Origin: a virus
Length of the DNA: 64,000 nt
Direction: 5' to 3' (one strand)
Virus record (IMG/VR): IMGVR_UViG_3300049215_000686
Location: 32,001-96,000 of that record
Of the stretch, positions 34,900-44,921 are shown one piece after another. The position numbers and the translations under genes are program-made. Under the pieces are notes generated by a model, which had not been told where the DNA came from, ran no database searches, and worked only from the letters and a program-made list of their open reading frames with translations. Position 1 is the stretch's first letter; every line of letters starts with the position of its first letter.

Positions 34900-35867
34900 T
34901 TTCCTTTAACGGGATCATATTCACCGATGACAGATCGCCCATGGATAGTTAAAAGCCGCAAAACGTGGAATCGAGCGGGATCAAAATCAAAAATTGCTTC
35001 ACGATCAATTTTAAAATCAGAATCAAGCGCGATTACTGAAACATTCTCATCGCCTGAGATTTCAATTTTTGAATCTTTTTGGACGATTGCCGGAATGGGT
35101 AAAGGGAGAAATTTCGTATCGTAGCCATCAATGAACCAACTGATTCTAAGCGGTCCAGAAGGTAAAAAAGCAACCCCATTGAGAACACAGGTCTTCACTC
35201 CCACTTCATCTATAAATTTATTGAGCGGAATATTTAAAATACCATTTTCAACGGGAAGGTTTACCGGATTTGGCTGAACTCCACAAAGGGAACTTTCAAA
35301 AGCCACTTGAACCTGAGAAGCGTCTCCTACGTCCGGAATCACCGCAATTTGAGTTGGATTTTTACCAGCGGCCACCTTATCGGCGAATCCCATAAAAGAC
35401 TGTCCAGCGTTAAGAACTCGAATCCACAAATGTCCAACAAACGAATGAATAACGAGCCCGCTCGAATCTTCCTCAGGAAACTCGGGAGAAACAACAAAAC
35501 TAATAAGACAACTTTGAGAAGCCTTGCCCGCCAAATAATAGGGAACCAAATTGTTGCTTAAATAACGCACGGAATCAGGCAAGGGATTATCCAGTCGGCA
35601 ATTCGTCGAAACGCGAATTGTGCCTTGGTAATATCCTTGAATTGCAAATCCCACATTATCAAGATCTTGCTCGGTTAAAACCGGACAAATCCCGATCCCG
35701 TGGAAACGCTTCCCACAAGCAGAAAATTCAGCAGAATGGTAATTGGCTTGAGTAGAGGGAATCACGGAATCATTTCTGATCTGATTCCCTCCACAAGAAC
35801 TGAGAAAAAGACTTAAGAAGAGGAACCAGAAGCCGGAGGTGCAGGCGGGGCGGGAGGATTTTGCCAT
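34881..35867 (-). CDS. lipoprotein
   Basis: FWFLFLSLFLSS-C lipobox. Confidence 0.65.
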   Translation of the reverse strand: MAKSSRPACTSGFWFLFLSLFLSSCGGNQIRNDSVIPSTQANYHSAEFSACGKRFHGIGICPVLTEQDLDNVGFAIQGYYQGTIRVSTNCRLDNPLPDSVRYLSNNLVPYYLAGKASQSCLISFVVSPEFPEEDSSGLVIHSFVGHLWIRVLNAGQSFMGFADKVAAGKNPTQIAVIPDVGDASQVQVAFESSLCGVQPNPVNLPVENGILNIPLNKFIDEVGVKTCVLNGVAFLPSGPLRISWFIDGYDTKFLPLPIPAIVQKDSKIEISGDENVSVIALDSDFKIDREAIFDFDPARFHVLRLLTIHGRSVIGEYDPVKGKWSWIY

Positions 35868-36190
35868 CCAGAAATTGCTCCTTTAATTGCTGACACAGCA
35901 CGCATCATATAATCCATCACCTTAAGCATCGTTGCGGAAAGTGGGATATTCGCATGAGGGAATACTTCAAGAACAGGCAACACGTAAGTCTGCCAAACAG
36001 TTACAATTTTTGCCGCAAGTTCATCATCAGTCTTTGACGCGGTGAGCGAAACAATAAATTGTAAGAGTTCAATGAGGATCGTCATTACAGGAACAAATGC
36101 GATCCCGTAAGCGCCAATAATGCCCAAAATACCGAATTTTGCACCCAGCATGGCAAGAAGTGGCTGAAGAATAGAAGAAATAATGTCCAT
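35813..36190 (-). CDS. holin-like membrane protein
   Basis: AAGGAGG SD; hydrophobic helices; LT.SKTDD motif. Confidence 0.55.
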   Translation of the reverse strand: MDIISSILQPLLAMLGAKFGILGIIGAYGIAFVPVMTILIELLQFIVSLTASKTDDELAAKIVTVWQTYVLPVLEVFPHANIPLSATMLKVMDYMMRAVSAIKGAISGWQNPPAPPAPPASGSSS

Positions 36191-36247
36191 AAAAACCTCC
36201 TTAATGGAATGAACCCATTATCGAAGGCAAAAGGCAGATTGAGATTT

Positions 36248-36323
36248 TGGAGCCGCTGGACCGACTTGAACGGTCATCACAATCGTACCGGGATTGTGTT
36301 TTTACCAGTTAAACTACAGCGGC
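36248..36323 (-). tRNA. tRNA-Thr(GGT), C at position 33
   Basis: GCCGCTG/CAGCGGC-T-CCA; CAATC-CCGGTAC-GATTG. Confidence 0.85.
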
Positions 36324-36324
36324 A

Positions 36325-36410
36325 TGGAGCCGATAGGATGATTCGAACATCCGTGGGATCTCTCCGCTCGTTTACAAAACGAGTGCAATCGTCCTCTATG
36401 CGATATCGGC
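36325..36410 (-). tRNA. tRNA-Thr(TGT) with long variable arm
   Basis: GCCGATA/TATCGGC-T-CCA; CTCGT-TTTGTAA-ACGAG; 14-nt V region. Confidence 0.85.
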
Positions 36411-36427
36411 AATAACATCGGCGAATT

Positions 36428-36501
36428 TGGAGCCTCGTGGCTGAATCGAACAGCCGATTGCTGAATACGAATCAGCAGTTATACCGTTTAACTAACGAGG
36501 C
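36428..36501 (-). tRNA. tRNA-Thr(CGT)
   Basis: GCCTCGT/ACGAGGC-T-CCA; GCTGA-TTCGTAT-TCAGC. Confidence 0.9.
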
Positions 36502-36516
36502 AAAGATCAGCAAATT

Positions 36517-36591
36517 TGGTGCGCGAGCCGGGAATTGAACCCGAATCTCATGACTGGCAGTCACGCATCATAGCCTTTAGACCACTCACGC
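36517..36591 (-). tRNA. tRNA-Gly(GCC)
   Basis: CGTGA-CTGCCAG-TCATG; encoded CCA. Confidence 0.88.
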
Positions 36592-36593
36592 AT

Positions 36594-36668
36594 TGGACCG
36601 GGTAGCGGGAATCGAACCCGCGAATCGACGTTGGAAGCGTCGCGTGTTACCACTAGCACTACACCCGG
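36594..36668 (-). tRNA. tRNA-Gly(TCC)
   Basis: CGACG-CTTCCAA-CGTCG; U73, CCA; C1:G72. Confidence 0.9.
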
Positions 36669-36727
36669 AAAGAAAACTATCTTTTACAAAATCCCCCATT
36701 TTGGATAAAATAGTTTCCATTTTTAAA

Positions 36728-36808
36728 TGGCGGGGTACACGGAAGTCGAATCCGTCTGATCTCTCGCGTGACAGGCGAGTGGCCACTCCCATCGCAGCCC
36801 CGTACCCC
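36728..36808 (-). tRNA. tRNA-Asp(GTC)
   Basis: GGGGTAC/GTACCCC-G-CCA; CTCGC-CTGTCAC-GCGAG. Confidence 0.88.
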
Positions 36809-36848
36809 AAAAACAAAAACCCCAGGAACCTTTCGGCACCTGGGGTTT
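36809..36848 (-). terminator. attenuator terminator of the Asp/Gly/Thr tRNA operon
   Basis: AAACCCCAGG-TGCCGAAAGGTT-CCTGGGGTTT-TTGTTTTT, ending immediately before tRNA-Asp. Confidence 0.85.
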
Positions 36849-36874
36849 GGAAACTTTTTGTTATTAAGCAAAAG

Positions 36875-36952
36875 TTACACAATCACCCCAGGAAGATTTG
36901 TATCTCCGTCCGTACCGGTTCCAGTGATGGTGTTTGTAATGAATTTGCTCAT
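36875..36952 (-). CDS. leader peptide MSKFITNTITGTGTDGDTNLPGVIV (Thr/Gly/Asp-rich)
   Basis: Translated by hand; 6 Thr, 4 Gly, 2 Asp; 3' CCTGGGGT is complementary to the terminator 5' arm. Confidence 0.8.
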   Translation of the reverse strand: MSKFITNTITGTGTDGDTNLPGVIV

Positions 36953-36958
36953 ATGTTT

Positions 36959-36987
36959 ATAATACCAAAATGAGTTCAGACCCACAA
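36959..36987 (-). promoter_or_regulatory. sigma70-like promoter for leader 2
   Basis: TTGTGG-17 nt-TATTAT with TGn extension, 6 nt before the leader ATG. Confidence 0.6.
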
Positions 36988-37002
36988 CGGTATAGTACAG
37001 AT

Positions 37003-37194
37003 ATGCCTGACATTACCATGTGCGACAATGAAAAATGTGCGCTGCGGCAAGACTGTTACCGCTTTACGGCTCAGCCTTCTCGATTTCAGTCTTATGCCCA
37101 TTTTGAGCCCCTAGACGAAACATGTTGCGATCATTTCTGGTGCAACAGTTCAGAAAAATTGGCACCGGACACAGGAGTCGAACCCGTTTCTTGA
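37003..37194 (+). CDS. small Cys-rich conserved phage protein
   Basis: MPDITMC...C.LR..CYRFTA.....QSY......C..FW pattern; TATAGT 6 nt upstream. Confidence 0.6.
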   Translation: MPDITMCDNEKCALRQDCYRFTAQPSRFQSYAHFEPLDETCCDHFWCNSSEKLAPDTGVEPVS

Positions 37195-37230
37195 ATTTTG
37201 GAGGTTCAATTGCGCCCCGCGCTATCCGGT
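37160..37230 (-). tRNA. tRNA-Trp(CCA), short D loop
   Basis: ACCGGAT/GTCCGGT-G-CCA; loop CTCCAAA; D arm GCGC-GGG-GCGC. Confidence 0.75.
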
Positions 37231-37280
37231 GTCTTATCCCTTATAGGTAATAAACTGGCTTTATAACCTATGGGTAATAA

Positions 37281-37358
37281 TGGTGCCGCAGATCCGAATC
37301 GAACGGATATTATGTCTGATCTTCAGTCAGATGCCATGACCACGTAGGCGACTGCGGC
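37281..37358 (-). tRNA. tRNA-Phe(GAA)
   Basis: GCCGCAG/CTGCGGC-A-CCA; TCTGA-CTGAAGA-TCAGA. Confidence 0.9.
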
Positions 37359-37363
37359 AAATT

Positions 37364-37439
37364 TGGTGGACCGACCCGGACTTGAACCGGGAATCCCTCG
37401 GTGCAAGCGAGGAGTTTTACCAATTAACACTATCAGCCC
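37364..37439 (-). tRNA. tRNA-Ala(TGC)
   Basis: G3:U70; CCTCG-CTTGCAC-CGAGG. Confidence 0.92.
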
Positions 37440-37444
37440 AATTT

Positions 37445-37530
37445 TGGTCGGAGGAGCAGGACTCGAACCTGCGAAGCCCAAAGACGCGTGATTTACAGTC
37501 ACGTGGGTTAGCCGCTCCCACCATCCTCCG
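37445..37530 (-). tRNA. tRNA-Tyr(GTA) with C1:G72 and long V arm
   Basis: CGGAGGA/TCCTCCG-A-CCA; CGTGA-CTGTAAA-TCACG. Confidence 0.9.
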
Positions 37531-37735
37531 AAATTTTCACATCAACTCCGAGTTCAAACCATCCCTTCCAGTGTTCGCCATTCCAAGTTTTTCTCTCAGA
37601 CTGAAATAGCCGCTTATTATCCCGAGATCTTCCTCCAAAAATCAAGAACATGTATTCTCCGTGTTCATGAATCCGGTTTTTGGCTCGATGGCTAATTGGG
37701 ATGAGTTTGACTTTGATACCTTTGTCCATTTCCAT
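37508..37735 (-). CDS. hypothetical protein
   Basis: 75 aa; stop lies inside the tRNA-Tyr 5' end. Confidence 0.5.
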   Translation of the reverse strand: MEMDKGIKVKLIPISHRAKNRIHEHGEYMFLIFGGRSRDNKRLFQSERKTWNGEHWKGWFELGVDVKISEDGGSG

Positions 37736-37914
37736 AAATCACTTTTCCGAATTGAAATCGCCTGCATCCGTCCTTGATAAACTCGTAAAGTCCGGTTCCA
37801 ATAACTCACGATCAAGGAAATCAGTTCGTCACTTTCTCCAAGAACTTTTTGAATTTCGAAATCAATATCGAGACAACTCATGTGTCGATAAAGATGGCCA
37901 GATTTAATTTTCAT
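37642..37914 (-). CDS. hypothetical protein
   Basis: 90 aa; G.LYRH..CLD motif. Confidence 0.5.
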   Translation of the reverse strand: MKIKSGHLYRHMSCLDIDFEIQKVLGESDELISLIVSYWNRTLRVYQGRMQAISIRKSDLWKWTKVSKSNSSQLAIEPKTGFMNTENTCS

Positions 37915-38104
37915 TTTTTGGCTTCCATCGCGTCTTTCGATACCGTTTCCAAGATCTCCGAGACCTAGACCATCCTCGCTTTGAATTTTCTCCTCGATTC
38001 GGCGGACAAATAGGGCATCGAAGTTTTACCCGCGAAGCCTTCTTATAAACCGCGCTATTGGTCGTTCCCGTTAATTCGTTATGATTTCGTCTTTTATCAC
38101 CCAT
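37904..38104 (-). CDS. small basic K/R-rich protein with CPICPP
   Basis: GGAGG SD inside an upstream hairpin. Confidence 0.55.
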   Translation of the reverse strand: MGDKRRNHNELTGTTNSAVYKKASRVKLRCPICPPNRGENSKRGWSRSRRSWKRYRKTRWKPKNEN

Positions 38105-38161
38105 TGCATGAATCCTCCCTAGTGGAAGGTCATGCGTCCTCGAATGTGCTTCATAATTTTT

Positions 38162-38236
38162 TGGTGGGGCCGAAGAGAATCGAACTCTTTCCTGGCAGAT
38201 TAAAAGTCTGCGGTGCCGCCTTTACACCACGACCCC
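38162..38236 (-). tRNA. tRNA-Lys(TTT)
   Basis: GCAGA-CTTTTAA-TCTGC; CCA. Confidence 0.9.
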
Positions 38237-38240
38237 AATT

Positions 38241-38315
38241 TGGCGGGATCGCAGAGACTTGAACTCTGATACACGGATTAAGAGTCCGCTGTAATAGCCG
38301 TTATACGACGATCCC
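38241..38315 (-). tRNA. tRNA-Lys(CTT)
   Basis: GGGATCG/CGATCCC-G-CCA; GCGGA-CTCTTAA-TCCGT. Confidence 0.9.
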
Positions 38316-38368
38316 CAATTTTTCCTTTCGTTTTCGTTTGTGTCGTTTCATATCGTTCCTTTAAATTT

Positions 38369-38443
38369 TGGCTCCAGGGGCAGGTTACGCTCCTGCATAT
38401 GACGCGTTAACAGCGCGTTCCTTTACTAGTCAGGCACCCTGGA
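38369..38443 (-). tRNA. tRNA-Asn(GTT), atypical T loop
   Basis: TCCAGGG/CCCTGGA-G-CCA; ACGCG-CTGTTAA-CGCGT; T loop AGCGTAA. Confidence 0.82.
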
Positions 38444-38831
38444 ATATATCTTTTCTTAAGCCCCGAATCTTACACGAACTGAAAGTCCCTCTCGCCATCC
38501 CAACAATTTTACAAGCATCATGTTCTGAATGTCCTAATTCTATAAGTTCAAGAACCTTAATGAACTTTTCATCAGAAATAGTCCTGGCTTCGGACTGGGG
38601 AATATCTTTAAATCTCTCACTCAAGTCTTTCTTTGTTTTTTCTAAATGGCATGACCGACAAAGCACTTGACATTTTTTAAGTTCCGCGTCTCTTTTAGAT
38701 TGAGTCCAACTCCAAATACGTGAAGAAACTTTAGTTTTAGGATCAATATGATCTAATTCCAATTCTTGCCATGATCCACATTGAACACAAGGTCCCTTTG
38801 CATCAAACCATTCCTTACGTCTTCTCGCCAT
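38430..38831 (-). CDS. HNH endonuclease with C-terminal HTH-like region
   Basis: CVQCG....LELDHIDP...KCQVLCRSCH. Confidence 0.85.
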   Translation of the reverse strand: MARRRKEWFDAKGPCVQCGSWQELELDHIDPKTKVSSRIWSWTQSKRDAELKKCQVLCRSCHLEKTKKDLSERFKDIPQSEARTISDEKFIKVLELIELGHSEHDACKIVGMARGTFSSCKIRGLRKDIFQGA

Positions 38832-38906
38832 CCATTCCCTTTGATACTTTCAAAGGTACTCCCTTCTTTCTTCCCTGATCGGCATATATACAACATACCG
38901 ATCGCC

Positions 38907-38949
38907 AAAAAACGAAAACCCCGCTCAATCTTTTACGACTGGCGGGGTT
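38907..38949 (-). terminator. attenuator terminator of the Asn/Lys/Tyr/Ala/Phe/Trp tRNA operon
   Basis: AACCCCGC-CAGTC-GTAAAA-GATTG-A-GCGGGGTT-TTCGTTTTTT. Confidence 0.85.
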
Positions 38950-38976
38950 CTTAGAATCTTTTTTGTTTAAACAAAC

Positions 38977-39057
38977 TTACAAGAAAGATTTCACCCCGCG
39001 AGCCACCCAATTGGTCGCATTATTTTTAAAGTTATAGGCGAAATAATTCTTGTTCAT
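38977..39057 (-). CDS. leader peptide MNKNYFAYNFKNNATNWVARGVKSFL
   Basis: Translated by hand; TATAAT at 39067-39072; internal GCGGGGT is complementary to the terminator 5' arm. Confidence 0.8.
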   Translation of the reverse strand: MNKNYFAYNFKNNATNWVARGVKSFL

Positions 39058-39101
39058 ATATTTACTATTATACCTTTTTTTGCTAGATCGCAACTTTATT
39101 T

Positions 39102-39371
39102 TCACTTTTTTACAGCAGGTGACGGACTCGGAGCGGGAGCCGGCGACGCATTGGAAGCAACGGGCTTACTCCAGCAAACTTCTCCGCCCTTTGAAAGGTA
39201 ACAAATCACCTCAGTCGTTTCGCACCGAGAAAAACCAACCTTTTTATCTAACTGCAAACAAAACTTTCCCTGGATTACGGGCTTTTCTTCTTTCTTTGAT
39301 TCTTTTGCAAAGGCCAGCGAAGAAACCAACATCATTAAAAAAATCCATTTTCGCATAATGTTCTCTCTCAT
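39102..39371 (-). CDS. small secreted protein
   Basis: MRKWIFLMMLVSSLAFA signal peptide; 4 Cys; PAPAPSP tail. Confidence 0.6.
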   Translation of the reverse strand: MRENIMRKWIFLMMLVSSLAFAKESKKEEKPVIQGKFCLQLDKKVGFSRCETTEVICYLSKGGEVCWSKPVASNASPAPAPSPSPAVKK

Positions 39372-39379
39372 TCTAAAAA

Positions 39380-39800
39380 TGGTGGAGGTGGGCGGAATTG
39401 AACCGCCGTCCAGAATCTTTCAGTCACCAAGTCATTCACACGCATATCTGGTTTTACGATCCAGCAATCAGGGTACGACCCGTTTTACCGAGTCTCCACC
39501 ACTTGGTTTATGTCCAAGAACAGGAGAGGCGTTTCCGCGTCCACCAGCCGCCAGTTTAACGTCTCGACGACCCGACGTTTTTGCCTTTCTTCTGTTTCTC
39601 GGCTCAGGCAGCCTCATTGTTTCCTAACCTAGGTCAGGCTACAAGGCGGAGATCAGCCTTACGGCTGAAATCCACGCGAACGACGTTGTCATTAGCATTT
39701 GTTGTTTGCATCTTTGTTTCCGGGGAATCCCCAAGGCAGCCTCATGCTCTGCCTGCGCGCACTCAATTTCCTCGTTATCCTGTCGAAACCTGTCACCCCC
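39380..39800 (-). ncRNA. ssrA: tmRNA; tag peptide ANDNVVRVDFSRKADLRLVA* (39634-39696)
   Basis: 5' GGGGGTGACAGGTTTCGACAG; 3' GACGGCGGTTCAATTCCGCCCACCTCCACCA with G3:U70; AND-type resume codon. Confidence 0.93.
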
Positions 39801-39810
39801 ACATTAAAAG

Positions 39811-40035
39811 TTATCCCTCTAATTCTAAATCAATTTCGGAGACCTTCTCTTTTGTTGCTTCATTGAGATGCCCCGCCCACTCGATTTCTTGCTTTAACCA
39901 AGGGTAAAGATATAGGCGAAAAAACGCAAGAACATCTCGACTCTTTGTTTGGGCCGCCTGATCATAAATCTCAATCAGTTTTTCTACCCGAATCGCCGCT
40001 TCACTCATCTCAATGATTTCGGTGAGAGCGCCCAT
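39811..40035 (-). CDS. hypothetical protein
   Basis: AAGGGG SD; 74 aa. Confidence 0.55.
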   Translation of the reverse strand: MGALTEIIEMSEAAIRVEKLIEIYDQAAQTKSRDVLAFFRLYLYPWLKQEIEWAGHLNEATKEKVSEIDLELEG

Positions 40036-40158
40036 TTTATGGTCCCCTTATTTCGTTGATTCACAATGTTAATATACCAAAACGGCTATTTTATAAGAGT
40101 TCCAGGCGTGTCCAACTTGACACATTGTATAAATTGGGCGTTGCGTTATTCTTGGGAT

Positions 40159-41670
40159 ATGAAGATCCAACGTCTTTTAATAATTTTGGTCAGTGGGTTC
40201 CTTATTGAGATCACGCTTTCGGCCTGTAATGCACCTACCGATGCGAACACTCAAACCAATGATTCTTCTCAATCTTCGACACAAGACGATGTTTCCAGCA
40301 GCCCTGGCAATTCAGCCGATCAAGGAAATTCACAATCTTCAAATGCAAATTCGAACTCAAGTAATTCCCCTAAAGGAAAAGGACCATCTCAGCCAGTCCC
40401 CAATCCTTCATCTACGGCTTCACCTTCCCCTACACCAACGCCGACTCCTACACCAACTCCTACGCCAACGAATTCAGCGCCGGTAATGAGCACTCTCAAT
40501 CAATCGGGAGCAGAAAATAGCGCATTGGTATTTAATTTGGTCGCCAACGATGCCGACAACGATCCTTTAACTTATTCTTGTGTGTCAAGTTGTCCTGCCG
40601 GGCTGACAGTTGATGGGCCGACCGGCAATGTGGAATGGACGCCTGCTTTTGGTACAGCCGGGACCTATCATGTCAACTTCGGAGTATCTGATGGAGTGAA
40701 CCCCCAAGTCACCCAGTCAGTCCAAATTACAATCGCTCACACCAATCGGCCCCCTGTCATTCAGCCGCTTACGTCTCAAAGCGTGAGTACTGGACAGACT
40801 TTAACCATCACTCCCGTTATTTCAGATCCAGACCAGGATGCCTTAACTTTAACCATGAATAACCCTCTGCCCGCCAACTCTGCTTTTAATGGTACTTCTT
40901 TCAGTTTTAGCCCCACCAACGCACAAGCCGGACAATATACCGTGACCTTTAATCTCAGCGATGGTGTTTTAACGACTTCTGAAAGAGTGACTATCACATC
41001 AAACTCGGTGAACATCGCGCCGCAAATGGCTTCGATCGCCAGCCAAAGTATTTCCCAACAACAGCCCATTACATTTGCCGTTTCCGCGACCGATGCGAAC
41101 AATGATCCGTTAGTCTACAGCAGCGCGAATCTTCCAGCAGGAGCGACTTTTGCTAATAATCAATTCTCTTGGACACCTTCTTGCGGACAAAACGGGACTT
41201 ATACGCCGACCTTTACGGTAACCGATACCGGAGGTTTGACGGATACAAAATCGCCCACAATCACGGTTTCAGCCAGCGACTATTACACAGTTACTTGGAA
41301 CTCCAACATTGCTCCCTCATTATCGGGAACAAACGGAAACTCGACAAATGCCTATGCGGGAATCGGGTTTTATCTCGGAGCAGGAGGACTGACCTATTCC
41401 TATGTTGCTGAATTCGATTGTAATAACAAGACATGGAATAAGGCATGGAATGCTGGAACAAGGACGCTTTCGGTAACAAATCCGTTTGGGAGTCTCGATC
41501 CCGGCAAACATTCCTTCTTGGTCTATGTTCAAGACTCTTGTGGAACGAAATATTACCGCTTCATTCAGGTCACGGGATATAACGGCAGTTTCTCGATTCA
41601 GAAATCAGACCAAGGAGCGACTTATTCAACCGCTGGACTTTGTGGTGGAGGCCATGTTTATCAGCATTAA
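40159..41670 (+). CDS. surface lipoprotein with PT linker and three cadherin/Ig-like repeats
   Basis: MKIQRLLII...TLSA-C lipobox; PTPTPT linker; N.(A/P)P...D.D.D.L...LP.GA...WTP repeats. Confidence 0.8.
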   Translation: MKIQRLLIILVSGFLIEITLSACNAPTDANTQTNDSSQSSTQDDVSSSPGNSADQGNSQSSNANSNSSNSPKGKGPSQPVPNPSSTASPSPTPTPTPTPTPTPTNSAPVMSTLNQSGAENSALVFNLVANDADNDPLTYSCVSSCPAGLTVDGPTGNVEWTPAFGTAGTYHVNFGVSDGVNPQVTQSVQITIAHTNRPPVIQPLTSQSVSTGQTLTITPVISDPDQDALTLTMNNPLPANSAFNGTSFSFSPTNAQAGQYTVTFNLSDGVLTTSERVTITSNSVNIAPQMASIASQSISQQQPITFAVSATDANNDPLVYSSANLPAGATFANNQFSWTPSCGQNGTYTPTFTVTDTGGLTDTKSPTITVSASDYYTVTWNSNIAPSLSGTNGNSTNAYAGIGFYLGAGGLTYSYVAEFDCNNKTWNKAWNAGTRTLSVTNPFGSLDPGKHSFLVYVQDSCGTKYYRFIQVTGYNGSFSIQKSDQGATYSTAGLCGGGHVYQH

Positions 41671-41709
41671 AAAAAGGCCAGATCGACTTCTTGCAAATCG
41701 ATCTGGCCC
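41669..41709. terminator. intrinsic terminator hairpin
   Basis: GGCCAGATCGA...TCGATCTGGCC, with the U tract on the - strand. Confidence 0.75.
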
Positions 41710-41832
41710 CGAGAGAGAGGAGTAGTATGAGCCGCTTCTTGCGGAACTCATCCACTCTGAGCGAGCAGCCATAAAAAAGCAAATGAAAAACTCTTATTTA
41801 AAGATATCAGACACAATGGTATTTTTAAAAAA

Positions 41833-43392
41833 ATGAAAGCAAATGAAATCCCAATTGGCACCCCTTTCGGAGACTGGATAACGCTAAGCGTCTATGATCC
41901 TGTCACGAAACGAATTCTTTGCCGTTGTGTTTGCCAAACGGTTAAATCGATATCTGCCGGATCTCTCATCAATAAAGACTCCACTGGATGTGGCTGTAAG
42001 GCCAAAGAAAAGCGCCGTCAAACTCGAATCAACCAAGGAGACTTTCAAGACTTAACCGGAAAACGTTTCGGTAACTGGTTAGTCCTTTCAAAATCAATAG
42101 CCCCCAATAAATATTGGGTTCAATGCGAAGGCTGCCAAAATGTAAAAAAAGAAGTTTGGGCAGGATCCTTACTTCAAGGAAAGTCAAAGGGCTGTAATAA
42201 GTGTGGGGTCAAGCAGTATCGAGAAACTATGAAGAAAAAGTACGGTGAAGAACATCCGCTTCGATTAAAGGAATTTAAGGAAAAACAAATTCAAACTAAT
42301 TTACAGCGCTATGAAAAAGAAAACCCGGCCCAAAATTCTATCATTAAAAAAAAGATGGAATCGACACTCTTTCTCCGTCACGGCGTAAAAAACGCAATGC
42401 AATGTCCTAAAATCAGACAAAAAGCCGAGCAAACAACTTTAGCAAAATATGGAGTAAAAAATATCCTTCAGTCCGAATCCGTTCGGGAAAAACTTCTTAA
42501 AGAATCTTCCCAAGGAGAAAAAGACATTCAAGCGTTCCTTCATTCTTTAAATATCCAAACCCACTCTAAAATTTGCCAAATAGGGGATAAAGTTCATCAA
42601 TTTGATCTTTATGATGATCAAACAAAAATCGCCATCGAATACAATGGAGAATACTGGCATAGCGAATCGGCAAAAAGAGGAAGGAATTACCATCAAGACA
42701 AAAACCGCGATGCAGAAACCCTCGGAATTCGACTTATTCACATTTTCGAATTGGAATGGAAATCAAAAAAAGAGCAGATTAAAGGATTCCTTAAAAGCGC
42801 ATTTGGTAAAAACGAAATTCGGATCTTTGCTCGAAAATGTGAAATCAAAAAAACAGAAAAAGAATCCGCCCGTGAGTTCTTAAATCAATATCATATTCAA
42901 GGAGCAGGTCCGGGAGGATTTCACTACGGGCTCTTCTATGATCAAGCCCTCATCGCAATTATGACGATTAGCAACCATCACCGAATCCCCCATGAAAAAA
43001 TCATGTCTCGCTGGTGTGTAAAAAATAACATCACAATAAGTGGCGGGCTCAGCCGTCTGATTGAATTTGCGATGCGAGATCTTAATATTACAGAAATTAC
43101 AACTTGGGCTGACTTACGCTGGAGTACCGGTAACGGTTATCTAAAATCCGGCTGGGAACTCATCTCAAGAATTCCTCCCGATTACTTTTATTATGACGCA
43201 TCTGCTCGGAAAATAATATCAAAACAAAGTAGGAGAAAATCAGCAGTCGGAACACCGCCAGGAATGACGGAAAGAGAACATGCCGTCCAAGATGGACTTC
43301 ATCGAATTTGGGATTGTGGCAAATTAAAACTTTGTTATCGCTTAAAAAATAAAAAAGGGACGCCAGATATTCCGGCGTCCCCAATCTATTAG
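41833..43392 (+). CDS. homing-endonuclease-like protein (zinc-finger repeats, KYG repeats, PD-(D/E)xK nuclease, C-terminal GNAT-like region)
   Basis: DLTGKRFGNW; KYGVKN; FDLY..IAIEYNGEYWHS; IFARKC..HIQG..ADLRWS..IWDCG; AT-rich and antisense to neighbours. Confidence 0.75.
   Translation: MKANEIPIGTPFGDWITLSVYDPVTKRILCRCVCQTVKSISAGSLINKDSTGCGCKAKEKRRQTRINQGDFQDLTGKRFGNWLVLSKSIAPNKYWVQCEGCQNVKKEVWAGSLLQGKSKGCNKCGVKQYRETMKKKYGEEHPLRLKEFKEKQIQTNLQRYEKENPAQNSIIKKKMESTLFLRHGVKNAMQCPKIRQKAEQTTLAKYGVKNILQSESVREKLLKESSQGEKDIQAFLHSLNIQTHSKICQIGDKVHQFDLYDDQTKIAIEYNGEYWHSESAKRGRNYHQDKNRDAETLGIRLIHIFELEWKSKKEQIKGFLKSAFGKNEIRIFARKCEIKKTEKESAREFLNQYHIQGAGPGGFHYGLFYDQALIAIMTISNHHRIPHEKIMSRWCVKNNITISGGLSRLIEFAMRDLNITEITTWADLRWSTGNGYLKSGWELISRIPPDYFYYDASARKIISKQSRRKSAVGTPPGMTEREHAVQDGLHRIWDCGKLKLCYRLKNKKGTPDIPASPIY
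43351..43382 (-). terminator. terminator after major capsid gene
   Basis: GGGACGCC-loop-GGCGTCCC followed by T6 on the - strand. Confidence 0.8.
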
Positions 43393-43406
43393 AGAACAGA
43401 ATTCGC

Positions 43407-44921
43407 TTAGGCGACTCCGATGTTCTCGATGACGCCGCTCTTACGAGGGGCGAAGAGAATCAATGCGCCAGCAAGCCAGAGCAAGAATTCCTTAGCGGTA
43501 GAAATCGCCGCTAGATTGATTTTGAGCAGTGGGCTCAATTGTCTCCAAATCATCACTTCCGGACGCATATCCAGCATATAAGCCGAAGCAGCACCAGGAG
43601 CGCGATTTCCAAGATCCGTGAACAGCGTAGCGCTGCCGGTTCTTGCGACATAACCGATGAACAACGCCGAGCCAGTGCCCAAGTTGTTCGTGCGGTAAAC
43701 CGCGTAATGAGTCGGCTGATTGCCAGCAGACGGATCGGAGATCTTGAAGGTAACATTGTTACCATCCGTAGCGATCGTAACCGCTACAGAAGTAATGAAT
43801 GCAGCGCTTTCGCCCTGCTCATTCACCGAGGTAACGCTGTAGACGTAAACGTCACCAGCCTTCAATTTCGAACTAGCCGCAGTCTGATCCATGCTGTTTC
43901 CAGAACCCGCAGCGACCGAAGCCGCAGCAGCGTTCTTGAGGTCAGCAGGAGCGCCAGGCACACCCATACGATCCGGATTCGCCTTGGTTCCCTGTTTTTG
44001 TTTCAGGAACACGTTCGGACGAAGTTGAATTCCTCCAGCCGTGGTCACCATCTCGCGAACGATATAACCCGCACGGCCACTTTCGACGCCGAGTTGGTTT
44101 ACGCGTTCTTTTGGATAGAACTGCTTAATGAAATCCGACAACTGCTTCGGAGGAAGGTGCAATTCCGAAGGGCGACCGAAGTTCTCAACCAACACGTTGG
44201 CTTCGAATTCGATATCGCTTTCGTTCAGAATGTCCCCATCTTTCGAAAGGATTACGGTCTGACTTCCGCCGTATCCATCAAAAGCGCGGGCCTGAGCAGC
44301 GAAATCACCATCGCCAGAACGGATCTGTTGCTCGATACCATTCAGGTTAAGATTCTGCATCTTGATCGGGATCGCAGCGACCAATCCATCGAACTTACCG
44401 GCGTTGCTGTAATCAGCATTACCTTTGTAAAGTTCGCGCTCAAGTTTCTCAAGCATCCAAAGCGTCCCGTTCTGGGTCTCAAGCGACTCGATGTCATTGC
44501 CGAAATTCTGGCGAACCAGAGTTGCAGCAAGCGAAACACCACGTCGGGTCGAGAAGAACATGACCTTTTGTGCATGCCGATTATACTCGGCGTCGTTCAT
44601 CACAGGCGAGCCGCTTTCAGGGATGTATGGCGAGCCACCATCACCGTAGGCGGTCGTGCGAACATATTGCTCAGCGAGCGAATATGCGCGATCTTGGCTA
44701 ATTGACGGCCACATGACCAAATTCGTCGCATCGTAAGTCACGCTTTTAAGCGTTCCATCAATGCTTTCCACACCCAAAGCACCACCACCCACCAATTGGG
44801 TAGGAGCACCAAGATAGCCATGACCCACCTGAAGAGTCTTTAACAACTCCTCACCCTGGTTCGAGTCCATCGCTTGCGATGCACCGGCTCCGATTTCTAC
44901 TGAAAAAAGATCATCAAACAT
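43407..44921 (-). CDS. major capsid protein
   Basis: GGGAL.VESIDGTLK, EQY.R...YG, FDGL, L.PLLKINLA motifs of SPO1/Twort-type capsids; GGAGG SD; biased codon use. Confidence 0.85.
   Translation of the reverse strand: MFDDLFSVEIGAGASQAMDSNQGEELLKTLQVGHGYLGAPTQLVGGGALGVESIDGTLKSVTYDATNLVMWPSISQDRAYSLAEQYVRTTAYGDGGSPYIPESGSPVMNDAEYNRHAQKVMFFSTRRGVSLAATLVRQNFGNDIESLETQNGTLWMLEKLERELYKGNADYSNAGKFDGLVAAIPIKMQNLNLNGIEQQIRSGDGDFAAQARAFDGYGGSQTVILSKDGDILNESDIEFEANVLVENFGRPSELHLPPKQLSDFIKQFYPKERVNQLGVESGRAGYIVREMVTTAGGIQLRPNVFLKQKQGTKANPDRMGVPGAPADLKNAAAASVAAGSGNSMDQTAASSKLKAGDVYVYSVTSVNEQGESAAFITSVAVTIATDGNNVTFKISDPSAGNQPTHYAVYRTNNLGTGSALFIGYVARTGSATLFTDLGNRAPGAASAYMLDMRPEVMIWRQLSPLLKINLAAISTAKEFLLWLAGALILFAPRKSGVIENIGVA

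Follow-up and report, generated by a model that had tools for sequence, protein, structure and literature searches.

In classical attenuators, a ribosome that reaches the stop codon of a short leader ORF leads to termination, while a ribosome stalled early in that ORF leads to read-through. The locus described here, on the minus strand of an uncultured phage genome, resembles thrL (Thr/Ile), the ilvGMEDA leader (Ile/Val/Leu), trpL, hisL, leuL, and pheL in that a short ORF carries regulatory codons, and it resembles the enterobacterial attenuators in having mutually exclusive 1:2, 2:3, and 3:4 helices and an intrinsic terminator ahead of the first gene. Unlike the enterobacterial systems, it is phage-encoded, has no Shine–Dalgarno sequence, has a −10 box 9 nt before the AUG, and would control tRNAs (plus an HNH gene) instead of biosynthetic enzymes; it also samples six amino acids rather than one to three, mostly through scattered single codons and with several synonymous codons among them. 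To our knowledge, leader-peptide attenuation has so far been described for genes of amino-acid biosynthesis and for a few synthetase genes. The best-supported reading of the locus is a known mechanism in a new setting, namely phage tRNA genes with many inputs per leader, and we consider it probable, with good confidence, that the locus (hereafter unit 1) is a translation-coupled, ribosome-mediated leader-peptide transcription attenuator that gates a phage tRNA operon.

Like the pheM leader of pheST, which senses one amino acid and controls a synthetase, and like T-box leaders, in which a specifier codon and the T-box sequence hold uncharged tRNA directly and no translation is needed, unit 1 would make the expression of part of the translation machinery depend on the state of the cognate tRNA. 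It departs from the single amino acid and the synthetase of pheM and from the direct tRNA binding of T-boxes; a T-box riboswitch was rejected as a candidate because no Rfam T-box match at E ≤ 1 was found in 35500-40200. Nor did positions 38907-39072 match any Rfam leader family, which rules out a known member of these as well, the only leader-family match in the window (the whole 64-kb stretch analysed, bases 32001-96000 of the 157,131-bp record) being that of His_leader to a sister unit, unit 2. In mycobacteria, leaderless short ORFs encoding polycysteine are Cys-responsive attenuators, and, as far as the accessible part of that report goes, the likeness to unit 1 lies in a short ORF that opens a polycistronic transcript and adjusts, through its codons, the expression of what follows, whereas the mycobacterial ORFs respond to one amino acid and serve cysteine-related genes and unit 1 would govern tRNA output from an AUG start that is only inferred (bioRxiv 10.1101/834739). 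In the portions of the sources available to us, phage tRNAs are treated as a means of counter-defence or of supply (van den Berg et al. 2023, PMC10264068; Burman et al. 2024, PMC11464382), and tRNA-cleaving defences are taken up in these two reports and in PMC12409363; the same portions of PMC10264068 and PMC11464382 deal with the same class of cargo from the side of tRNA function, and no codon-sensing switch upstream of it is evident in them. We found no description of leader-peptide control of tRNA genes in the full-text literature, in which subscription journals are poorly covered, and an older report is possible.

Genomic setting, leader, and operon of unit 1

The IMG/VR virus record represents an uncultured phage (157,131 bp, about 96% complete by estimate, 45% G+C) whose closest cultured relative, judged by a DnaB-like helicase, is Myxococcus phage Mx1, at 28% identity. 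Along the minus strand of the window, the order is a phage tmRNA gene (39800-39380; Rfam, 87 bits) directly upstream of unit 1, an 89-aa ORF between the two (39371-39102), attenuator 1 (39093-38907), an HNH ORF, tRNA block 1, attenuator 2, and tRNA block 2. The predicted tag of the tmRNA is atypical, with 20 residues and a Leu-Val-Ala end in place of the usual Ala-Ala. Relatives found through a neighbouring 328-aa protein or through the DnaB-like helicase have no tRNA genes, so that there are no orthologous leaders to align and no orthologous conservation of the attenuator. In the closest relative contig (L002, 44-53% protein identity), one 691-aa gene separates a 504-aa gene from 118-aa and 333-aa genes; within 35800-44900 of the window, the interval matching this 691-aa gene contains two plus-strand genes, the tmRNA, and both tRNA operons. 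From this comparison, the tmRNA/tRNA module looks like an accessory insertion, and the tmRNA and tRNA blocks form a translation-support module absent from the relatives of the phage.

The leader ORF of unit 1 (39057-38977, minus strand), of 26 codons and a TAA, stands between the promoter-like box and the first gene. Its content bears out what the earlier note had read there: 15 of the 16 regulatory codons 2-17 (39054-39007) encode Asn, Lys, Tyr, Phe, Ala, or Trp, the sole exception being one Thr, and both Lys codons are present (AAG at codon 3; AAA at codons 11 and 23), with tRNA-Lys(CTT) and tRNA-Lys(TTT) both encoded downstream. Over the whole leader, 18 of the 25 non-start codons belong to its own tRNA set, compared with 2/25 and 3/25 for the other two sets of the genome, and among 676 ATG ORFs (20-40 codons, six frames, whole genome) leader 1 alone attains 72% for this amino-acid set (binomial P = 3e-6 against the composition of the long ORFs of the phage). 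A simulation in which AT-richness alone explained the enrichment had been named in the earlier note as a result that would refute its reading, and composition failed it: none of 200,000 nucleotide shuffles of codons 2-17 (48 nt) reached 15/16, and shuffling of the whole leader ORF likewise attained the observed match in 0/200,000 trials. AT-rich composition or chance as the source of the codon match is ruled out by these shuffles together with the survey of 676 ORFs.

The promoter-like region (39093-39067, minus strand) consists of TTGCGA (39093-39088), a 15-nt spacer, and TATAAT (39072-39067), which ends 9 nt ahead of the leader ATG. In sister units 2 and 3, TATTAT or TATAAT ends 6 nt ahead of the ATG, a spacing at which the usual transcription start would fall on the A of the AUG. 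A −10-like box 4-9 nt ahead of the ATG is present in all three leaders and in only 10 of the 676 short ORFs of the genome (1.5%). No Shine–Dalgarno sequence precedes leader 1 (no SD-like 4-mer in −18 to −4), from which we infer that translation of the leader must be leaderless or coupled. That the leader mRNAs are leaderless or nearly so is an inference from the position of the −10 boxes, without transcription start data, and initiation at the AUG of leader 1 is likewise inferred, given that there is no Shine–Dalgarno sequence and that the promoter, because of its 15-nt spacer, is not listed by a simple consensus promoter scan. An in-frame GTG at 39105 (minus strand) lengthens the leader ORF to 42 codons and overlaps the TGA of the 89-aa ORF (GTGA), an overlap that could couple translation from the 89-aa ORF into the leader on read-through transcripts.

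Past the terminator and ahead of the first tRNA comes the HNH endonuclease ORF (38831-38430; Pfam HNH, PHROG HNH at 1e-28), which overlaps by 14 nt the gene for tRNA-Asn(GTT) (38443-38372; 45.7 bits with Rfam/Infernal, found by ARAGORN at a relaxed threshold only). There follow, also on the minus strand, tRNA-Lys(CTT) and tRNA-Lys(TTT) (38315-38162), three small overlapping ORFs within the operon (38104-37508; 66, 90, and 75 aa) that match neither Pfam nor PHROG families, tRNA-Tyr(GTA), tRNA-Ala(TGC), and tRNA-Phe(GAA) (37530-37281), and a divergent tRNA-Trp(CCA) candidate (37230-37160). ARAGORN at default settings calls five of these seven tRNAs, namely the two tRNA-Lys and the tRNAs for Tyr, Ala, and Phe. 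In the tRNA-Trp candidate the acceptor stem is 7 bp long, the T-loop is canonical, and the anticodon loop reads CUCCAAA; the candidate is called by ARAGORN at a relaxed threshold only and is not reported by Infernal. The claim that the leader names exactly the six specificities encoded downstream holds for Asn, Lys, Tyr, Ala, and Phe and is only weakly supported for Trp, the weakest element of the match.

Position alone places the HNH gene under the switch, and a weak promoter-like site lies inside the ORF. Only in unit 1 does an HNH gene stand between terminator and first tRNA; in units 2 and 3 and in the foreign lineages of the L051 group, L067, and L083, the first tRNA begins 0-40 nt past the terminator, which makes the HNH ORF look like a later arrival that is co-regulated by position, probably a secondary homing-endonuclease insertion. 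HNH genes are also scattered through the tRNA regions of Mx1 and T5. On the plus strand, a divergent Cys-rich ORF of 74 aa (36970-37194, region 36934-37194; no Pfam match) has its ATG 6 nt past the TATAAT of a called promoter-like site (TTGTAA/18/TATAAT); its promoter stands back to back with that of attenuator 2, and its 3′ end overlaps the tRNA-Trp candidate.

Alternative helices and the proposed switch

The intrinsic terminator predicted for unit 1 (38951-38907, minus strand) has a hairpin at 38951-38915 (−23.1 kcal/mol) and a U-tract that runs to 38907. It is among the six strongest terminator-like sites in the 157-kb genome, and three of these six stand directly before the three tRNA blocks of the genome, where a constitutive stop would be oddly placed. 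Upstream of it, the full-length MFE fold has segment 1 (39053-39036) paired with segment 2 (39001-38979), and segment 1 would act as the anti-antiterminator; segment 2 as a whole (39004-38979; codons 18-26, with GCGGGGT at 38999-38993) is the predicted 5′ strand of the antiterminator, and segment 3 (38966-38937, with ACCCCGC at 38948-38942) is both the 3′ strand of the antiterminator and the 5′ arm of the terminator. The MFE fold of the 163-nt leader (−53.8 kcal/mol, z = −5.7) combines the terminator with the 1:2 helix, in which nt 5-22 (early codons) pair with nt 57-79 (codons 19-26) and which had been absent from the earlier note.

When the full-length leader was folded with a ribosome masked at any position, the terminator was always retained; the full-length RNA at equilibrium prefers the terminator, and the switch must therefore be kinetic. 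Antiterminator folds were computed for a transcript that stops short of the 3′ arm of the terminator, as the transcript does when the decision is made. In such a transcript, the 2:3 antiterminator pairs nt 54-79 with nt 92-121, and constrained folding recovers, at the very same positions, the GCGGGGT/ACCCCGC helix that had been proposed from inspection, together with its extension by AATCTTT/AAAGATT (−24.6 to −27.8 kcal/mol). The predicted antiterminator amounts to −27.8 kcal/mol without a ribosome and to −26.5 to −24.6 kcal/mol with the A site at codons 5-13, and drops to −5.6 at codon 17, −2.5 at codon 20, and 0 kcal/mol at the stop. The loss of the helix from codon 20 to the stop agrees with the earlier expectation that a ribosome at the end of the leader covers the antiterminator strand. 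A ribosome at codons 14-17 already masks segment 2, so that not all 16 codons can induce, and the effective inducing positions in this folding model would be only about codons 2-13. The six-amino-acid readout that had been put forward keeps its codon match but loses codons 14-17 as inducing positions.

In the mechanism that we propose, transcription would begin at, or a few nt ahead of, the AUG of the 26-codon leader. If the leader were not translated, segment 1 would bind segment 2 and the terminator (3:4) would form, and it would also form when ribosomes quickly reach codons 18-26 or the stop and cover segment 2. A ribosome slowed at the early Asn, Lys, Tyr, Phe, or Ala codons (about 2-13) would instead cover segment 1 and leave segment 2 free to bind the 5′ arm of the terminator ahead of the synthesis of the 3′ arm, and RNA polymerase would then read through into the HNH gene and the genes for tRNA-Asn, tRNA-Lys (two), tRNA-Tyr, tRNA-Ala, tRNA-Phe, and tRNA-Trp. 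A tRNA shortage would turn the operon on and the accumulation of charged phage tRNA would turn it off, possible sources of shortage being a poor host supply for the codon usage of the phage, cleavage or degradation of host tRNA, and amino-acid starvation. Since the switch would sense the very codons that its downstream tRNAs decode, the arrangement would be a demand sensor with a negative feedback loop, and the phage probably makes these tRNAs only when ribosomes decode the matching codons slowly. The ORF, the codon match, the predicted terminator, the alternative helices, and their recurrence are read from the sequence itself, while the transcription start, the translation of the leader, the stalling, and the physiological trigger are inferred, with no RNA or ribosome data at hand.

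Sister units and units in other phages

Two further units in the same genome fold like unit 1 and share its build (25-26 codons, a −10 box 6-9 nt before the ATG, and GGG GTG in segment 2), and leaders 1 and 2 align over much of their length. Attenuator 2 (36987-36809, minus strand) is made of TTGTGG, 17 nt, TATTAT, 6 nt, a 25-codon ORF (36952-36875), and a terminator (36848-36809) that abuts tRNA-Asp, the first gene of operon 2 (tRNA-Asp, Gly(TCC), Gly(GCC), Thr(CGT), Thr(TGT), and Thr(GGT); 36808-36248, minus strand). Half of its leader codons (12/24) encode Thr, Gly, or Asp, 11 of them within codons 6-18, and all four Thr codons are used. Attenuator 3 lies outside the window (L001; genome 156014-155855, minus strand), with a 25-codon ORF at L001 2424-2501 (genome 156002-155925) in which 12 of 24 codons encode Arg, Met, Ile, or Val, and it precedes tRNA-Arg(TCT), tRNA-Met, tRNA-Ile, and tRNA-Val. 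The off-diagonal matches between leaders and tRNA sets among the three units amount to 2-5 of 24-25 codons. Leader 3 has, in addition, five Ser codons, and no tRNA-Ser was found in block 3, a mismatch that is unexplained.

Block 3 also holds two tRNA-like remnants that no tool calls (L001 ~1546-1619 and ~1705-1767; genome ~155046-155118 and ~155204-155266, minus strand), in one of which an acceptor stem of 7 bp, a good T-arm, and an Arg-ACG-like anticodon loop (CTACGAA) go with a degenerate D-arm, and the other of which has D- and T-arms and no anticodon arm. Sub-threshold Rfam matches were seen in unit 2 (window 36811-36942, minus strand; His_leader, 23.7 bits for a cut-off of 49, E = 0.99) and in unit 3 (L001 2357-2470, minus strand; Pseudomonas rnk leader, 25.8 bits, E = 0.22), and we take them as architectural resemblance only.

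Since close relatives have no tRNAs and orthologues are lacking, IMG/VR was scanned with a pattern of structural bases only (GGGGTG, 30-50 nt, ACCCC, 12-26 nt, GGGGTTTT), which is blind to ORFs and tRNAs. The scan returned 80 loci, 12 of them with same-strand tRNAs within 600 nt downstream, and in three independent lineages the tRNA is at most 40 nt away (expected fraction 0.4%, P = 0.0035). In these three lineages and in a fourth, L070, the ORF that leads into GGGGTG is enriched in codons for the amino acids of the tRNAs that follow: the leader core of L067 has 15/17 codons for Thr, Pro, Asn, Ser, Gln, or Arg before tRNA-Thr, Arg, Asn, Pro, Ser, and Gln (two), and the L083/L135 leader has 14/16 codons for His, Lys, Ser, Phe, or Trp before tRNA-Trp, His, Phe, Ser (three), and Lys. 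Four more units were added by a rule-based scan of the tRNA regions of the same records, which is free of the pattern and asks for a terminator with an ATG ORF ending just ahead of it; they include a Leu-rich leader ahead of four tRNA-Leu genes and a Met/Gln/Ile/Glu leader ahead of tRNA-Met, Gln (two), Met, Ile, and Glu (two).

Both scans together gave eight foreign leader/operon pairs from four unrelated phages. Among the resulting 11 pairs from five phages, the own tRNA set ranked first of 11 for 10 leaders and second for the remaining one, and none of 200,000 random pairings equalled the true one; when the test was restricted to the eight foreign pairs, 3 of 200,000 did. A caveat to this test is that two foreign units (the first unit of L136 and L139) offered two candidate ORFs, of which the better-matching one was taken. 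As for structure, pairing extends 2-4 bp past the bases fixed by the pattern in 6/6 independent tRNA-adjacent units, against a mean of 0.84 bp in the 69 other matches, and the antiterminator fold was obtained in 10/10 units tested, better than in shuffled controls (z = −1.8 to −5.1). The L139 unit (920-985) has a TTGACA/17/TATACT promoter and an AAGGA Shine–Dalgarno sequence ahead of its leader, which supports the translation of leaders in this class.

The leader of L067 (minus strand, ~330-510), from an unrelated 179-kb phage, has a 3′ end nearly identical to that of attenuator 2 (window 36875-36900), the common stretch being GGGGTG, one differing base, and then TTGTGTAAC. The sensor codons of L067 are wholly unlike those of attenuator 2 and match a different tRNA set, and the likeness, as judged by these letters, suggests that a shared cassette may have been re-coded. 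A T7-like promoter motif (CACTATTATAGGGAGG) is found ahead of the L067 leader. In one giant-phage record, near-identical attenuator terminators occur at L132 1001-1038 and L133 1169-1202; their leader ORFs differ and each matches a different tRNA set, a pattern that fits cassette duplication followed by re-coding of the leader. The design is not universal, since no terminator-gated tRNA blocks were found in Mx1 (37 tRNAs), and no such terminators were found before the tRNA genes of T5 as annotated or in the three tRNA-bearing stretches examined of the huge phage LR756508.1.

Rival readings and biological meaning

No terminator separates the 89-aa ORF (39371-39102) from the hairpin of unit 1, so the hairpin must also end upstream transcription, and it could be nothing more than the ordinary terminator of the tmRNA and 89-aa ORF unit, preceded by a chance short ORF, with the tRNAs transcribed from other promoters and nothing sensed. 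The consensus scan, which calls no promoter at leader 1, and the weak promoter-like site within the HNH ORF would agree with such an arrangement. Nevertheless, it leaves unaccounted for a codon match that 0/200,000 shuffles attain and that is seen again, for other amino acids, at the two further tRNA blocks and in four unrelated phages, the −10 box found 6-9 nt before 3/3 leader ATGs as against 1.5% of short ORFs, and an antiterminator complementarity above background, and we hold it to be highly improbable. The helices may also be real and the switch set in another way, by T-box-like binding of tRNA, by an antitermination protein of phage or host, or by an antisense RNA, a possibility that gains from the alternative helices being the best-supported part and from the lack of a Shine–Dalgarno sequence at leader 1. 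One RNA, however, could hardly carry specifiers for six tRNA identities, and no T-box or other riboswitch was matched at E ≤ 1; moreover, the enrichment resides in codons in frame with the ATG and not in nucleotide motifs, shuffles of the same bases failing to reach it, and one member of the family has a clear Shine–Dalgarno sequence. A switch operated without translation seems to us quite unlikely.

The purpose of a ribosome-mediated switch is a separate matter. The same mechanism could sense amino-acid starvation through uncharged tRNA, the matching tRNAs serving general stress timing and not tRNA supply, and, as far as the available part of the relevant analysis goes, stalling in attenuators of the trp/his type does not reveal whether a tRNA is absent or uncharged (Elf and Ehrenberg 2005, PMC1183508), so that a stalled ribosome cannot by itself exclude this. 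We find it rather unlikely, given that an additional tRNA gives no relief of amino-acid starvation and that a supply-and-demand loop predicts just the one-to-one allotment of amino acids to leaders and tRNA blocks seen in 11 units. Within the reading that we prefer, a leader-peptide attenuator gating a tRNA operon, the units could further belong to a horizontally spreading family of cassettes, with which large phages would sense an attack on, or a shortage of, specific host tRNAs through the speed of the ribosome on a test peptide and would transcribe the exact replacement tRNAs block by block, attack here meaning anticodon nucleases or tRNA degradation during infection. This extension is put forward tentatively, with more doubt than conviction. 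Frequent targets of anticodon nucleases are tRNA-Lys, tRNA-Asn, and tRNA-Tyr, the tRNA-Lys for example of PARIS. If the extension were true, these leaders would constitute a counter-defence sensor coupled to translation, in which each switch could take as many as six or more inputs.

The presence of tRNA genes in phages has been a matter of debate for decades, the explanations proposed being codon compensation, replacement of degraded host tRNAs, and escape from tRNA-cleaving defences. A decoding-speed switch placed at codons served by its own tRNAs would show that tRNAs are produced on demand, and such switches would split the tRNA repertoire of a phage into separately regulated supply units. 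Attenuation would thereby be extended to tRNA genes and to many inputs per leader, in a design that recurs in unrelated uncultured phages, and leaders of this kind could serve as compact sensors of tRNA availability.
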